Source: Parasynechococcus marenigrum WH 8102
GTDB taxonomy: Bacteria > Cyanobacteriota > Cyanobacteriia > PCC-6307 > Cyanobiaceae
Length of the DNA: 32,000 bases
Direction of reading: 5' to 3'
NCBI RefSeq assembly: GCF_000195975.1
Contig: NC_005070.1
Location: 1,350,001 to 1,382,000, forward strand
The translations under genes and the position numbers were made by a program. A model generated the notes under the pieces. That model saw only the letters and a program-made list of their open reading frames with translations, did no database searches and was not told where the DNA came from. Positions 2,930-26,623 of the stretch are shown here, piece after piece; position 1 is the stretch's first letter, and each line of letters starts with the position of its first letter.

Positions 2930-3008
2930 GACTCCAAGCTGGCTTATCTGAACCAAAGCCCTTCAGGTCTTCCACATTGCAGCGGTATTGGGCCAAAACC
3001 AGGCATGG

Positions 3009-3471
3009 GCACGCCATTTCCAACATCGGTGGGCACTGCCCCAGAGGCAATGCGCCTTAACACCGATTGCCGGATGTGCTCCACGCGACCAACACTGTGG
3101 TCATCGAGATCGGAGGTGCCCATGACGGCCGACACTCCACCTGAGCAACACCCAGAAGCTGCCTGACTGACTCGGCCCCTGCTCCAACAGTTTCCACCCA
3201 TCCGTAAGGCTCGTCCTTTGGCAGGCATTCCTTGAGCGCCACGTCAATCGACACTCCATTGCACCGTCCTCAGGTGCCCAGGAGTCCACAAGCCTTCACA
3301 CCTGGACCCCATGGCCCCAGGCGCCATCCAGCCAGACGCTTTGACCGTTTCTTCAGTCCCTTTGCTTGAGGTTCCAACTCCCTGAAGCATTACTGATCAG
3401 GTCGATTGCTATGCACAAACGAGCGAGATAGGCCGTCCTTCCCATCCGGGAGGGGCGGCCTTCCCCTTGTT
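3009..3471. repeat. Direct repeat R, copy 1 (463 bp)
   Basis: Base-by-base comparison with 7149-7611 gives 461/463 identical with no indels. Mismatches are at 3030 and 3035 only. Identity ends abruptly at 3008 and 3472. Confidence 0.97.
3430..3471 (+). terminator. plus-strand hairpin plus T-rich tail at the right end of R copy 1
   Basis: 14-bp stem (3430-3443 with 3448-3461), loop ATCC, tail TTCCCCTTGTT. Two stem pairs are T-G on the plus strand, which are G-U wobbles in plus-strand RNA but A-C mismatches in minus-strand RNA. Confidence 0.45.
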
Positions 3472-3560
3472 GGGTGCATGGATCAGATCAATAGAAGGCC
3501 TGTTGTTTGGCGCTTTTCGATCCTTGGACTGTTCACCCTGGATGTAGTTGCAGCTAAGCC

Positions 3561-3755
3561 ATGGGTGGATTGAGTGGCACCAAATCAGACGACTTCATCA
3601 ACGCCGCCAAAGCACGTGCTGAGGCCGCCATTCAGGACAACCAGCCGAAGCTGACCAAGCTGGAAAAAGCTTTCCGCCATGCCGCCCTGCGGCGCCGGGC
3701 CCAGGATGCGCGCAGGGCTGCTGACGACCATCGCGCTAAACCCAACACCCATTAA
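3561..3755 (+). CDS. small charged hypothetical protein (64 aa) upstream of ocp
   Basis: ATG ORF MGGLSGTKSDDFINAAKARAEAAIQDNQPKLTKLEKAFRHAALRRRAQDARRAADDHRAKPNTH. Same strand as ocp, 91 nt upstream. Predicted helical and charged. No family recognised. Confidence 0.45.
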   Translation: MGGLSGTKSDDFINAAKARAEAAIQDNQPKLTKLEKAFRHAALRRRAQDARRAADDHRAKPNTH

Positions 3756-5929: not shown

Positions 5930-7135
5930 TCAACGAAGTGAGCGTCCCTTCCAGGTCCACCCCTGACCGGTGAAGGTCCGCCAAACCGACACGGGCCCGA
6001 TGGTGCCGACAATCAACCCTCCAGCACCCATCAGCCACCAGTAATCGATGGGCAGCTGAAATTCCCGTCTGGTCCACAGACGCAGGATTAACTGCTGAAG
6101 AACAGCGATTGAGGCGGCAGCCAGCAGAGCCAGCCACCACCACTGAGCGATCGGGAGAACCAACAACAATCCAATCGCAACGGGAATCAGCAACCAGGGC
6201 AGGCTGAACATCAGCACCACCACGCCGGCAGCAGCCAGTGCTTTGCCGGGATCGCGATCCAGTCCCAGGCACCAGTTTTTGGTCCAGCCTTCCCACAACG
6301 CGGCCAGATCGGCGTACATGCGCAGATCAACGGCATCAAGACCCAGCAGGTAGCGCAAGCGATGACCGCCCGTCTTGATCCTGCGCGCCAAGGCCAGATC
6401 CTCCACCACTTCTGCCGCCAGTGCACGGTGCCCACCGATCCGTTCATAAACACTGCGGCGGAAGAGCATGAATGGTCCAGCAGCGAAGGCGACGTCGGAG
6501 TCGGGATCATTGGCGGCTTCGATCGGAAAACCCAGCCCCAGCAGGCTGGCCATGATCGGTTGCACCATCCATTCGGCCAGGCAGTCACAGGTGAGTCGTG
6601 GCGCCAGGCTCAACAGATCCGCCTGATCCGCGATCGCCTGAGCCAGTGATCGCCGGATGGCATCGGCTTGCAGCTGCACATCGGCATCGATGAACAGCAC
6701 CCAGTCGCTGCGCACCTGCTCCATGGCCCGGGTGCACGCCCAGTTCTTGCCCACCCAGCGCTCAGAGGCCGGACGGGGACCGGCCGGCAGCACACTGAAC
6801 CCCGCCGTGGACTGCGGGTGGCGGGCAGCACAGGCCACCGCCAGCTCCGCCGTGGAATCAGTTGAGTCGTCATCCACCACCAACACCTCCCAATCCACGC
6901 AGGGGGGCTGGCCGTTGAGCACGCTGGCCAGGCAAGCGCCGATGTTGCCGGCTTCGTTGTAAGCCGGAATCACCACCGTGAGGGAGGTCTGGGGCACAGG
7001 CACGTCCGCCGCAGCCTGCAATTGCGGCGCCAGTTCGAACACCCGCCAGAGGCCGACCTGCAGGATCAGCAGGCCAATGCAGGAGGCCATGGCGGTGGCC
7101 AGCAACCCCAGCGCAACGATCACCAGTGGATCCAA
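5930..7135 (-). CDS. membrane-anchored family 2 glycosyltransferase (CrtQ/CruC/CruG-like architecture)
   Basis: 401 aa. N-terminal TM helix, GT-A motifs VVIPAYNE, VVDDDSTDST, FIDADV, then GKNWAC, LLSLAPR, EDLALARR, LWEGWTKNW, several C-terminal TM helices and a TWKGRSL C-terminus. The start is TTG at 7135, with alternatives GTG 7123 and ATG 7090. Confidence 0.85.
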   Translation of the reverse strand: MDPLVIVALGLLATAMASCIGLLILQVGLWRVFELAPQLQAAADVPVPQTSLTVVIPAYNEAGNIGACLASVLNGQPPCVDWEVLVVDDDSTDSTAELAVACAARHPQSTAGFSVLPAGPRPASERWVGKNWACTRAMEQVRSDWVLFIDADVQLQADAIRRSLAQAIADQADLLSLAPRLTCDCLAEWMVQPIMASLLGLGFPIEAANDPDSDVAFAAGPFMLFRRSVYERIGGHRALAAEVVEDLALARRIKTGGHRLRYLLGLDAVDLRMYADLAALWEGWTKNWCLGLDRDPGKALAAAGVVVLMFSLPWLLIPVAIGLLLVLPIAQWWWLALLAAASIAVLQQLILRLWTRREFQLPIDYWWLMGAGGLIVGTIGPVSVWRTFTGQGWTWKGRSLR

Positions 7136-7148
7136 AGGCGGTCGGCAA

Positions 7149-7611
7149 GCACGCCATTTCCAACATCGGCGGGCGCTGCCCCAGAGGCAATGCGCCTTAA
7201 CACCGATTGCCGGATGTGCTCCACGCGACCAACACTGTGGTCATCGAGATCGGAGGTGCCCATGACGGCCGACACTCCACCTGAGCAACACCCAGAAGCT
7301 GCCTGACTGACTCGGCCCCTGCTCCAACAGTTTCCACCCATCCGTAAGGCTCGTCCTTTGGCAGGCATTCCTTGAGCGCCACGTCAATCGACACTCCATT
7401 GCACCGTCCTCAGGTGCCCAGGAGTCCACAAGCCTTCACACCTGGACCCCATGGCCCCAGGCGCCATCCAGCCAGACGCTTTGACCGTTTCTTCAGTCCC
7501 TTTGCTTGAGGTTCCAACTCCCTGAAGCATTACTGATCAGGTCGATTGCTATGCACAAACGAGCGAGATAGGCCGTCCTTCCCATCCGGGAGGGGCGGCC
7601 TTCCCCTTGTT
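7149..7611. repeat. Direct repeat R, copy 2 (463 bp)
   Basis: Identical to 3009-3471 apart from 7170 (C versus T) and 7175 (G versus A), at an offset of exactly 4140 bp. It begins 13 nt upstream of the GT2 TTG start. Confidence 0.97.
7570..7611 (+). terminator. plus-strand hairpin plus T-rich tail at the right end of R copy 2
   Basis: Same sequence as 3430-3471. Confidence 0.45.
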
Positions 7612-7815
7612 CATCTGGTGCAATTCAGCTGTGGAGCTGATGTTTACCGAACGCAATCAATGATTTGCCGGATTGCAGCGGCTCACATATGTTTTTTGGG
7701 TGAAGAGAAGCGCAGACGACAGATTCCACATCGCGGTGCAAGCCTTGGCTGCCTGATTGCACCCTGATCAGTCCACGGCGTTGACTTCACACAACCGTGA
7801 TTCCGGAGACGATCC

Positions 7816-7980
7816 ATGACATCAGCCTCTGTGGTGACCACGCGCGATGGAGACACCGTGCGCATGTTTCAGGGCGTGGATGGTCCTTTTTACCGCGCCT
7901 GCAACGGCAACCGCTGCGTAAACTGCCGAGACCTTGTGATCGCCCTCGAGCATCTCAAGGTCTGGCGTCAGAAGCTCTGA
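7816..7980 (+). CDS. small hypothetical protein (54 aa, MTSASVVTTRDGDTVRMFQGVDGPFYRACNGNRCVNCRDLVIALEHLKVWRQKL)
   Basis: Below the track cut-off. ATG start, GC-rich third positions, C-x4-C-x2-C motif. The listed ORFs 7683-7865, 7797-7994 and 7822-8037 overlap it: two are antisense and one is on the same strand in another frame. Confidence 0.45.
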   Translation: MTSASVVTTRDGDTVRMFQGVDGPFYRACNGNRCVNCRDLVIALEHLKVWRQKL

Positions 7981-8639: not shown

Positions 8640-8942
8640 ATGACCACGCCCAACCGCGATCAGGTGCTGGCAGCCTCCGCCGGTTGGGTGGCCGTGCTGC
8701 TCAATGTGGTGCCCGGACTCGGGGCCGGCTACCTCTACCAACGCCGCTGGCGGGCCTACTGGATCACCTCTGCTGTGGCCACCGCCTGGTTCGTGGCCGG
8801 TGCCGTCCTGGCTCAGGATGCGGATGCTGCTGCCGAAGCGCAGAACCAACTTGTGGGGTTGATCGGCCTGCTGGTGCTGGCGGGGGTGACCGCCACCGAA
8901 GCCGGCCTCAGGCTGAAGCAGGTGCGTCAGTCACTCTCCTGA
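8640..8942 (+). CDS. hypothetical membrane protein (100 aa)
   Basis: The internal ATG at 8640 gives MTTPNRDQVLAASAGWVAVLLNVVPGLGAGYLYQRRW... with three hydrophobic segments. The upstream part of the track ORF overlaps the divergent gene. Confidence 0.55.
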   Translation: MTTPNRDQVLAASAGWVAVLLNVVPGLGAGYLYQRRWRAYWITSAVATAWFVAGAVLAQDADAAAEAQNQLVGLIGLLVLAGVTATEAGLRLKQVRQSLS

Positions 8943-8948
8943 TCTGAG

Positions 8949-9113
8949 TCAATCGGGTAAGCGTTCAACGGCGACGTGCATGAAGCGCTTGACCATGGCG
9001 ATCGGCCAGCCCTCACGCTGCAGCTCCTCAGCGATCTGATCGATCTGATTGGCAATCTCCTCAGCCACCAGCTCCTCAAGCAAGTGGTTGGAGTGCTGGG
9101 TGGATGCAGTCAT
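8949..9113 (-). CDS. small hypothetical protein (54 aa, MTASTQHSNHLLEELVAEEIANQIDQIAEELQREGWPIAMVKRFMHVAVERLPD)
   Basis: Below the track cut-off. ATG start, helical acidic sequence, convergent with 8640-8942 (6-nt gap). Confidence 0.45.
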   Translation of the reverse strand: MTASTQHSNHLLEELVAEEIANQIDQIAEELQREGWPIAMVKRFMHVAVERLPD

Positions 9114-9227
9114 GGCAAGCGAGATCTTCTACGGGGCTAACCCATCCCTGCCGAGCGGCGCCACTGCAACATCCGTGACGAATGCAATCTCAGTGAAGAC
9201 GTACGGTTTCTTCACTATGGAGGTGCC

Positions 9228-9524
9228 ATGGAGAGGATGGTCTGGGCATTGGTGCTGATGGTTGGTCCAGAAGCGGCCCTGGCGGAAGCCAGGTTTGAGT
9301 GGACGGAGACCACCAGCAAGGAATGCAGGGCCTACTTCCAGCAGGCCTACATCGACCAGGCCCGGGCACTGCCGCCGAAAGGCATGGGACGTGACTACTG
9401 CGGTTGCGTGAAGGACGCACTGGCCACCAACCCAGCCGCGGCGGATGTCACCCAGATGTGTTCACTGATGGTGAATTCCAGATTTCAAACAGCATCACAA
9501 CAGGTAAACACCTCAGACAACTGA
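9228..9524 (+). CDS. hypothetical secreted protein (98 aa)
   Basis: Signal-like MERMVWALVLMVGPEAALAEA, then 4 Cys. No family recognised. Confidence 0.5.
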   Translation: MERMVWALVLMVGPEAALAEARFEWTETTSKECRAYFQQAYIDQARALPPKGMGRDYCGCVKDALATNPAAADVTQMCSLMVNSRFQTASQQVNTSDN

Positions 9525-11948: not shown

Positions 11949-12635
11949 TCAAATCTGAACCATGCCGCAACGCATTCCCTTCAACACAGCCTGCACTCTG
12001 TTGTTCACCTCCAGCGTGCGCAACAGGCGCTTGGTGTAGGTGCGAGCGGTTTCTTCCGTCACCACAAGATCTTCAGCAATGTCGCGATCGGACATGCCGC
12101 GGGCAAGCCGATCCAACACCTCATATTCGCGGGGTGTGAGCCTCGGGCAGCTCAGGTAGGGAAGCTCATCGGACCGCAACGATGGGCTGCGGTAGGAGTG
12201 ATGTCCCATCACCGCCAACACAGCCGCTTCCAGGGGTTTGCGGTCTTCGATGATGTCGGCTTCAGCGACAACAGCTTCCAGCCAGGGCGCGCTGTCGTAT
12301 CCCACCGGGATGGCATCACTCAAAGCGAGCACAACAACCTTCAGATCCGGTTGGAGCTCACGTGCTTTGCGCACCAGCTCGAAGCCGTTACCGCGCTCCA
12401 GTAAATCCGTGCAAAGGAGAAACTCGAATGTGTCTTGTTTTAGGTAATCCAAGCAGGACACTTCATCGGTCACGGCACAACCGATCTGGGCACGTTCAGT
12501 CAGACTTTCACAGAAGCAACGCAGGAAAAAACGACCCTTCATCGCCAAGGCAATCTTTCCGGTCATCGCAACAGACAACAACGGCTCGTCGTTCAGCGTC
12601 TTTGGTTGCTGTTGGAGATATGGCGTCAGATCCAT
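11949..12635 (-). CDS. LuxR/FixJ-type HTH regulator with atypical receiver-like N-terminal domain
   Basis: The C-terminus LTPREYEVLDRLARGMSDRDIAEDLVVTEETARTYTKRLLRTLEVNNRVQAV is a LuxR-type HTH. The N-terminal domain keeps a candidate acceptor Asp (LLCTDL) but lacks the acidic DD pair (KIALAMKGRF). Confidence 0.85.
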   Translation of the reverse strand: MDLTPYLQQQPKTLNDEPLLSVAMTGKIALAMKGRFFLRCFCESLTERAQIGCAVTDEVSCLDYLKQDTFEFLLCTDLLERGNGFELVRKARELQPDLKVVVLALSDAIPVGYDSAPWLEAVVAEADIIEDRKPLEAAVLAVMGHHSYRSPSLRSDELPYLSCPRLTPREYEVLDRLARGMSDRDIAEDLVVTEETARTYTKRLLRTLEVNNRVQAVLKGMRCGMVQI

Positions 12636-26214: not shown

Positions 26215-26623
26215 ACAGGGATTTCTTCAACCTAGCCACGCAAATCGAACGTGAATGTGACGACACAAACCAAAGTATTCGTCAGGGCGCCCTGTCAGAG
26301 CTGGACAACGCGATACCGGGGCACTAAGACATAAATGTCGTCACCACGACACAGCGTTCACTTCGCATTCCGCGGAGCGCAGCTCGACTCAGGCCATGGA
26401 ACGGGGGTCTGGGCTTGCTTCCTTTGGCTGCGATGACAACCATGGTTTGGAACGGATCAGCTTTTGGCCCTCAGGATCGTGAGGCCGCCAAACGTGAGGC
26501 GCTGGTACGGCGTCTTGAGTCAGCCTTAGCAGGTCCTGATGGGCAGCACTCGGCCCAATACCGCGGCACGGCATACCTGCGCCGAAACGGCTTTTCGGCT
26601 GTGCGCTAACCGATCAGGCCGAA

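Follow-up and report, generated by a model that had tools for sequence, protein, structure and literature searches.

A repeat of 463 nt, hereafter R, occurs twice in the window, the 32,000-nt stretch of the Parasynechococcus marenigrum WH 8102 genome analysed here, and each copy is assigned, with a probability of about 0.9, to a complete gene for Yfr103 consisting of a promoter, a structured RNA of ~ 365 nt and a terminator. Yfr103 is an RNA family that has already been described and named and for which transcript maps have been published, and the assignment is an annotation and not a discovery. The two identical yfr103 genes are placed at 3103–3471 and 7243–7611 and the parts of their promoters are assigned.

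The two copies (3009–3471 and 7149–7611), which a first-pass annotation of the same DNA had described as essentially identical, can be aligned gap-free with 461 of 463 positions identical, and the similarity breaks off sharply at either border. Both mismatches, at repeat positions 22 and 27 (3030/7170 and 3035/7175, corresponding to -73 and -68), lie upstream of the +1 position, and the two RNAs are therefore identical.

Assignment to Yfr103 and anatomy of the gene

Seven paralogous ncRNAs of 290–328 nt, named Yfr103, have been described in Synechococcus CC9605 (Hou et al. 2016, Sci Rep 6:35470; PMC5069720), where the family is attributed to Voigt et al. 2014. The sections of that paper dealing with Yfr103 rank its paralogues with the most abundant transcripts in marine Synechococcus and in low-light Prochlorococcus. 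In a Red Sea sample the seven CC9605 paralogues account for 55.2% of primary-transcript reads from Synechococcus, and the function of Yfr103 is termed “enigmatic”. Homologues are named there in WH8102, WH7803, RCC307 and CC9902 and in the low-light Prochlorococcus strains SS120, NATL1A/2A, MIT9303 and MIT9313. An imperfect palindrome at -29 to -58 and a -10 element (Fig. S3c) are reported upstream of yfr103, and seven transcription start sites in NC_007516.1 are given in Table S2: +1038850, -523498, +745088, -2396316, -520624, +946997 and +1437033.

A search with window positions 7243–7611 returned seven matches (E 8e-63 to 5e-19) in G218, a genome of the same genus whose coordinates match CC9605. 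All seven begin at query position 1, at 946997(+), 523498(-), 1038850(+), 520624(-), 745088(+), 1437033(+) and 2396316(-), and coincide exactly, in coordinate and strand, with the published start sites. R is thus identified as the yfr103 gene, with A7243 and A3103 as the +1 equivalents; the start sites in the window and the 3′ end are carried over from CC9605 by homology and are to be read as predictions. The main reading of the first-pass annotation, a plus-strand ncRNA antisense to GT2 and ending at a hairpin, is borne out by this alignment, in which R matches the seven mapped CC9605 transcripts from repeat position 95 onwards on the strand that had been proposed.

R resembles the published family in its homology to all seven CC9605 paralogues from the mapped +1 to the terminator, in the palindrome, the -10 box and the multi-copy habit, and in its taxonomic range of marine Synechococcus and low-light Prochlorococcus, WH8102 itself being among the published carriers. 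It differs in being a long variant (~ 365 nt versus the published 290–328 nt) with an extra hairpin at about 7530–7590 in its 3′ third, and its two copies are identical in the RNA and flank ocp. The features of the unit are given below; coordinates in copy 1 are those of copy 2 minus 4140.

7149–7185, plus strand: putative upstream promoter block of copy 2 (-94 to -58), from the family alignment consensus; both mismatches between the copies (7170, 7175) fall inside it
7186–7211, plus strand: imperfect palindrome GGCAAT-N14-ATTGCC (-57 to -32), a candidate transcription-factor site read from the sequence, kept in Synechococcus and Prochlorococcus copies and in agreement with the palindrome of PMC5069720
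7231–7236, plus strand: -10 element AACACT (-12 to -7), family pattern nAnAnT, from the alignment and its position relative to the mapped start site
7243–7611, plus strand: yfr103 RNA of copy 2, +1 equivalent A7243, ~ 360–369 nt, from the seven G218 matches and the covariation-supported structure
7252–7256, plus strand: Shine-Dalgarno-like GGAGG, 5 nt before the ATG, present in nearly all copies with a 2–12-nt spacer
7262–7306, plus strand: mini-ORF MTADTPPEQHPEAA, 14 codons and TGA, kept in 171 of 173 distinct 5′ regions
7570–7611, plus strand: intrinsic-terminator-like hairpin of 14 bp (7570–7583 with 7588–7601, loop ATCC) and T-rich tail, from sequence, folding and compensatory changes
3009–3102, plus strand: promoter of copy 1 (upstream block, palindrome 3046–3071, -10 element 3091–3096), equal to 7149–7242 except at 3030 and 3035
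3103–3471, plus strand: yfr103 RNA of copy 1, 100% identical to copy 2 (Shine-Dalgarno 3112–3116, mini-ORF 3122–3166, hairpin 3430–3461)

The first 94 nt of R, comprising the upstream block, the palindrome and the -10 box, would serve as a promoter module for the plus-strand RNA itself. Transcription would start at A7243 (A3103 in copy 1), yield a multi-helix RNA of 360–369 nt and terminate at 7570–7611, where a GC-rich hairpin is followed by a T-rich tail. The block at 7149–7185, whose consensus GCACGCC..TCCCAC.ATCGG is conserved among marine Synechococcus copies, is a presumptive promoter element, and the palindrome at -57 to -32, which together with the -10 box is also present upstream of the Prochlorococcus copies, probably binds a regulator. 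Published Yfr103 transcripts fall ~ 41 nt short of where the terminator alignment ends, perhaps through processing or because read coverage declines at the hairpin; the RNA may accordingly finish at the foot of the hairpin or have a processed 3′ end.

The motif GCAAT-N14-ATTGC occurs three times in the genome, twice as the R promoters. The third exact occurrence, the sole one that does not belong to an R promoter, lies at 7653–7676, 42 nt past copy 2. A regulon defined by the yfr103 palindrome was considered and rejected, as this one extra site compares with about two expected by chance and is not palindromic in the related genomes G009 or G021. Further downstream of copy 2, at 7780–7860 on the plus strand, lies a conserved stretch common to G009 and G021 that ends in GGAG-N7-ATGACATCAGC.. 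and is likely, from its sequence, to be the start of a small plus-strand gene.

R was also searched for protein-coding content and for known RNA classes. Three mutually overlapping minus-strand ORFs of 62–94 aa, in three frames, span its left two thirds (2944–3228, 3057–3254 and 3101–3289 in copy 1; 7120–7368, 7197–7394 and 7241–7429 in copy 2), and no ORF of at least 60 aa was found in the right-hand third. Pfam searches with nine ORF translations from R returned no family, the one match being a conotoxin at chance level (E 0.097). The earlier judgement that R holds no credible ORF was upheld by these results, and the proposal that R is a fragment of an ordinary protein gene, for which a profile search had been suggested as a check, was rejected: beyond the lack of a Pfam family, variable parts of R carry 1–2-nt indels and only the 14-codon mini-ORF is kept in frame. 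The first-pass annotation had matched R by eye to no RNase P RNA, tmRNA, 6S RNA or riboswitch. Likewise, no family was assigned to R by Rfam, RNase P RNA, 6S RNA and riboswitches included, in a scan of all 32,000 nt at gathering score or of 7000–7800 at E up to 10, and ARAGORN reported neither a tRNA nor a tmRNA. Elsewhere in the window, Rfam identified a glutamine-II riboswitch aptamer at 26352–26413 on the plus strand (RF01704, E 3.6e-12, scoring 59.5 bits where the gathering score is 33).

RNA structure and the transcribed strand

The family alignment displays sharp borders common to the copies, one where R begins and one just past the hairpin tail, and near-invariant blocks that alternate with variable stretches carrying 1- and 2-nt indels, which is the pattern of an RNA gene and not of a protein gene. 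Raw column mutual information was swamped by subfamily signal and useless for defining helices; it was replaced by RNAalifold and controlled pair counting. RNAalifold on 62 sequences with less than 93% pairwise identity gave 41 pairs, and a 42-pair version was counted with controls. In the 42-pair model, 98.4% of cells across the 62 sequences are paired. Fifteen pairs are changed on both sides, compared to 6.3 in shuffled alignments (0 of 500 shuffles reach 15), and 89 cells carry such changes, compared to at most 11 when the partners are slid by 1–3 columns. By this model, built here, R has a strongly conserved secondary structure, a feature also published for Yfr103. Compensatory change in the 62-sequence alignment backs four helices, all on the plus strand:

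pair 18:26, plus strand: small hairpin with the start codon in its loop (CG in 47, UA in 12)
alignment columns 116–123/153–160, plus strand: hairpin, compensatory change
alignment columns 188–192/217–221, plus strand: GCACC/GGUGC helix, compensatory change
7570–7601, plus strand: terminator helix, 7 of 12 modelled pairs covarying among 62 homologues

Three further long-range helices are predicted (GAAGC/GCUUC, CCUG/CAGG and CCA/UGG). They join invariant segments and hence lie beyond the reach of covariation. Prochlorococcus copies retain the GAAG/CUUC part, and pair 58:288 is mismatched in four of them.

The 14-bp stem with loop ATCC and two T-G pairs, as first described, can be read directly from the sequence, the T-G pairs being 7576:7595 and 7579:7592. 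Folded as RNA, the plus strand of the hairpin reaches -33.9 kcal/mol (z -4.98, with 0 of 200 shuffles as good) and the minus strand -25.9 (z -2.53); folding of the whole RNA is better than shuffles on the plus strand (z -2.5) and not on the minus strand (z -1.15). The two wobble positions are U-G in 51 and 48 of the 62 homologues, and this conservation confirms the plus strand. The covariation analysis that had been proposed for homologues of R finds the hairpin conserved, with compensatory changes in the 7 pairs listed above.

The conserved short reading frame

Yfr103 may be a dual-purpose RNA, with a ribosome-binding site and a conserved ORF of 13–14 codons at its 5′ end. Among 173 distinct 5′ regions gathered by sequence pattern and BLAST, 171 contain GGAGG followed by an in-frame start codon and an ORF of 9–14 codons; in the BLAST-found subset the mini-ORF is kept in 81 of 83. 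The start codon is ATG in 160 copies, TTG in 9 and GTG in 2, and the length is 13–14 codons in 159 and 9–11 codons in 12. The encoded peptide is acidic, with the consensus M-T-A/D-D-T-P-P-E/Q-Q/H-x-x-E-A-x and the core D-T-P-P-E. The mini-ORF is also kept in copies from Prochlorococcus and Cyanobium. Prochlorococcus peptides include MDDTPPEYAVEAS (TTG start), MVDTPPEYLREAN and MIDTPPEYQIEAN, and their ORFs carry synonymous changes (ACT/ACG/ACA, CCA/CCG, CCT/CCA) and end in TGA or TAA.

Spacing between the Shine-Dalgarno sequence and the start codon takes every value from 2 to 12 nt, whereas the distance from the start to the Thr codon is only 3, 9 or 12 nt, and start-like triplets are in frame in 172 cases versus 10 out of frame. 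This combination of free and fixed spacing, together with the excess of in-frame triplets, looks like selection for initiation and frame. Exceptions were observed in individual copies: Yfr103b of CC9605 carries a 1-nt deletion that shifts the frame into a 27-codon ORF, and in the full copy at genome positions 1849509–1849929 the start codon is replaced by ATA. No literature match was obtained for the mini-ORF peptide strings, and the passages on Yfr103 in PMC5069720 mention no ORF. The conserved mini-ORF, for which no published mention was found, is a new lead of this analysis.

Translation of the mini-ORF is plausible from these sequence patterns, at a shade under an even chance. Its final codons and stop lie inside predicted long-range helices (GAAG with CUUC, CU with AG), so that a translating ribosome would open the folded core. 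We tentatively propose, somewhat short of even odds, a translation-gated dual-function RNA in which Yfr103 is translated into an acidic peptide of 13–14 residues and passage of the ribosome opens the long-range helices. The abundance of the RNA and the rigid conservation of its core would fit a protein- or ribosome-binding RNA better than an sRNA that base-pairs through a short seed.

Among the alternatives, the one that survives best refines the main explanation without excluding it, and holds that Yfr103 is primarily a tiny mRNA for the 13–14-aa acidic peptide, its 3′ part being a stabilising or regulatory UTR. The near-universal GGAGG and start codon, the restricted start-to-Thr distance with its excess of in-frame triplets, and the persistence of the ORF in BLAST-derived Prochlorococcus copies, with synonymous changes and both stops, are what such an mRNA would display. 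Third codon positions, however, do not as a rule vary the most, the closing codons of the ORF and its stop overlap RNA helices, and the 300-nt 3′ part is more conserved than a UTR would need; the peptide strings also left no trace in the literature search. In addition, stops occur in the hypervariable codons 9–11 in ~ 7% of copies, and a subfamily including highly expressed CC9605 paralogues replaces the DTPP core with MRDDGPTEQ.. while the RNA pairing is kept, and the peptide consequently seems less constrained than the RNA. On balance this alternative is possible and mildly disfavoured.

Structured RNAs that also encode a small peptide include SgrS/SgrT, RNAIII/hld and SR1/SR1P. If translated, Yfr103 would resemble these dual-function RNAs in being a structured, abundant RNA with a short ORF behind a ribosome-binding site, and it differs from them in that its ORF is far shorter (13–14 codons) and lies at the extreme 5′ end. 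Yfr103 is similar to tmRNA (ssrA) in combining structured RNA with a short internal frame, here ending in ..EAA, and is nevertheless not a member, since ARAGORN found no tRNA-like domain, the ORF has its own Shine-Dalgarno sequence and AUG, and the C-terminal residues vary (A, D, S, R, N). With 6S RNA and the CsrB-type sponges it shares high abundance, conserved structure and the lack of an obvious short seed; unlike these, it has no Rfam match and no array of repeated GGA-loop motifs.

Distribution, the ocp cassette and the origin of the identical copies

The genome searched, a single contig of 2,434,428 bp, holds four full yfr103 copies, namely the two R copies and two more, and isolated 3′ modules were detected at two other sites (genome coordinates):

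1531745–1532212, minus strand: further full copy, ~ 72% identity to R
1849509–1849929, plus strand: further full copy, ~ 72% identity to R
346749–346815, minus strand: isolated 3′ module (conserved ATGCACAAACGAGCGAG-like stretch and hairpin), rest of yfr103 absent
1853178–1853286, plus strand: isolated 3′ module (ATGCACAAACGAGCGAG-like stretch and hairpin), 3.3 kb downstream of a full copy

The module at 1853178–1853286 directly follows plus-strand ORFs of 462 and 298 aa and may now be their terminator. A lone 5′ module was seen in G218 (contig C1, 1172110–1172176, minus strand), where positions +2 to +67, covering the Shine-Dalgarno sequence and the start region of the mini-ORF, are present and the rest of the RNA is absent.

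Within the genus, 34 of 36 genomes carry 1–12 matches at 66–93% identity, and in the organism's own taxonomic family 238 of 395 genomes match, one genus having none among 93. No match was found in a sample of 24 other cyanobacterial families, nor in phage genomes by distant blastn. Seven of the matches listed are on contigs of bins labelled Rubripirellula, Salipiger, Klebsiella or “proteobacterium”, and these are most likely mis-binned Synechococcus contigs.

In the window, the two R copies bracket an ocp-crtW-frp cassette. The same cassette lies between two yfr103 copies in G033, a different species (C1:196000–210000; copies at 6134–6596 and 8857–9281 of that stretch), which are identical to each other (434/434) and ~ 82% identical to the R copies. 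That paired copies match within each genome and yet differ from one genome to the next argues for gene conversion or repeated recombination between neighbouring paralogues. The near-identity of the R copies is therefore most likely the product of gene conversion or recent recombination between neighbouring paralogues, and not of mobility. G009, ~ 86% identical in the flanks, has ORF64-ocp-crtW-frp-GT2 with the copy-2 gene only, and G021 lacks ocp-crtW-frp. In these strains without copy 1 the corresponding site is ~ 60–70 nt long (G021, contig C31, ~ 12440–12490; G009, 7406–7469). At the G021 site a decayed yfr103-terminator-like hairpin, AGCCGTCTTTCC..GGAAGAG, was detected, a remnant that suggests loss of copy 1 in G021 and not its gain in WH 8102.

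The position of copy 1 raises the question of an action in cis, in which read-through of the terminator from the strong yfr103 promoter would reach ORF64-ocp-crtW-frp 90 nt downstream. Same-strand orientation, close spacing (3471 to 3561) and the order yfr103 then ocp in several other strains speak for such coupling, which is nonetheless improbable, given that the 14-bp GC-rich hairpin is a strong terminator and most ocp loci in the genus have no adjoining yfr103. Only 4 of 15 ocp-bearing same-genus genomes have a copy within 1.5 kb of ocp, and a conserved functional link between yfr103 and ocp was rejected on this count.

Still less probable, and strongly disfavoured, is the view that the ocp-crtW-frp cassette was moved by R acting as a mobile or recombination element, either MITE-like or as an attachment site. 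The ocp cassette does lie between direct, near-identical copies in WH 8102, G221 and G033, and isolated 3′ fragments occur elsewhere in the genome. Against mobility, the first 12 kb of the window contain no inverted repeats of at least 40 nt, many copies occupy syntenic positions in different species, nothing was matched in phage genomes, the scarcity of yfr103 near ocp (the 4 of 15 genomes above) is at odds with a carrier of the cassette, and the G021 remnant points to loss and not insertion. No recombinase lies between the full copy and its 3′ fragment (1849509–1853286): the 3.3-kb interval holds the 462-aa and 298-aa ORFs and nothing integrase-like, as judged without a family-library search, and the idea of an integration site, prompted by 3′ fragments downstream of full copies, was dropped. 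The isolated 3′ fragments are better read as decayed paralogues than as integration sites. Three papers on Synechococcus genomic islands and tycheposons (PMC7522525, PMC3877281 and PMC8995045) do not mention R or yfr103.

The weakest alternative, raised in the first-pass annotation, takes R for a shared 5′ leader or promoter of the minus-strand genes adjoining it on the left (GT2, with its start at 7135, and the small 63-aa ORF near 2929). The distances on which it was founded are correct (13 nt to the GT2 TTG in copy 2, ~ 80 nt to the ATG in copy 1), and it can be dismissed nearly outright, as the left flanks of more than 70 homologous copies bear no relation to one another, transcription has been mapped to start on the plus strand, U-G pairs in the helices would become A-C on the minus strand and the minus-strand fold is no better than shuffles. 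With R only 13 nt from its start, the GT2 promoter must overlap R or lie beyond it.

Assignment of R to yfr103 thus leaves two identical RNA genes around a photoprotection cassette, a clean example of concerted evolution among RNA gene paralogues. The palindromic candidate operator, found throughout the family, offers a testable handle for finding the yfr103 regulator. Yfr103 still matters: according to the Yfr103 sections of PMC5069720, its seven paralogues accounted for 55% of Synechococcus primary-transcript reads in the Red Sea sample, and no Rfam model matched it. Hitherto regarded as non-coding, it is reported to be the most abundant transcript that marine picocyanobacteria make in the field. 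The conserved mini-ORF with its ribosome-binding site asks whether Yfr103 is truly non-coding.
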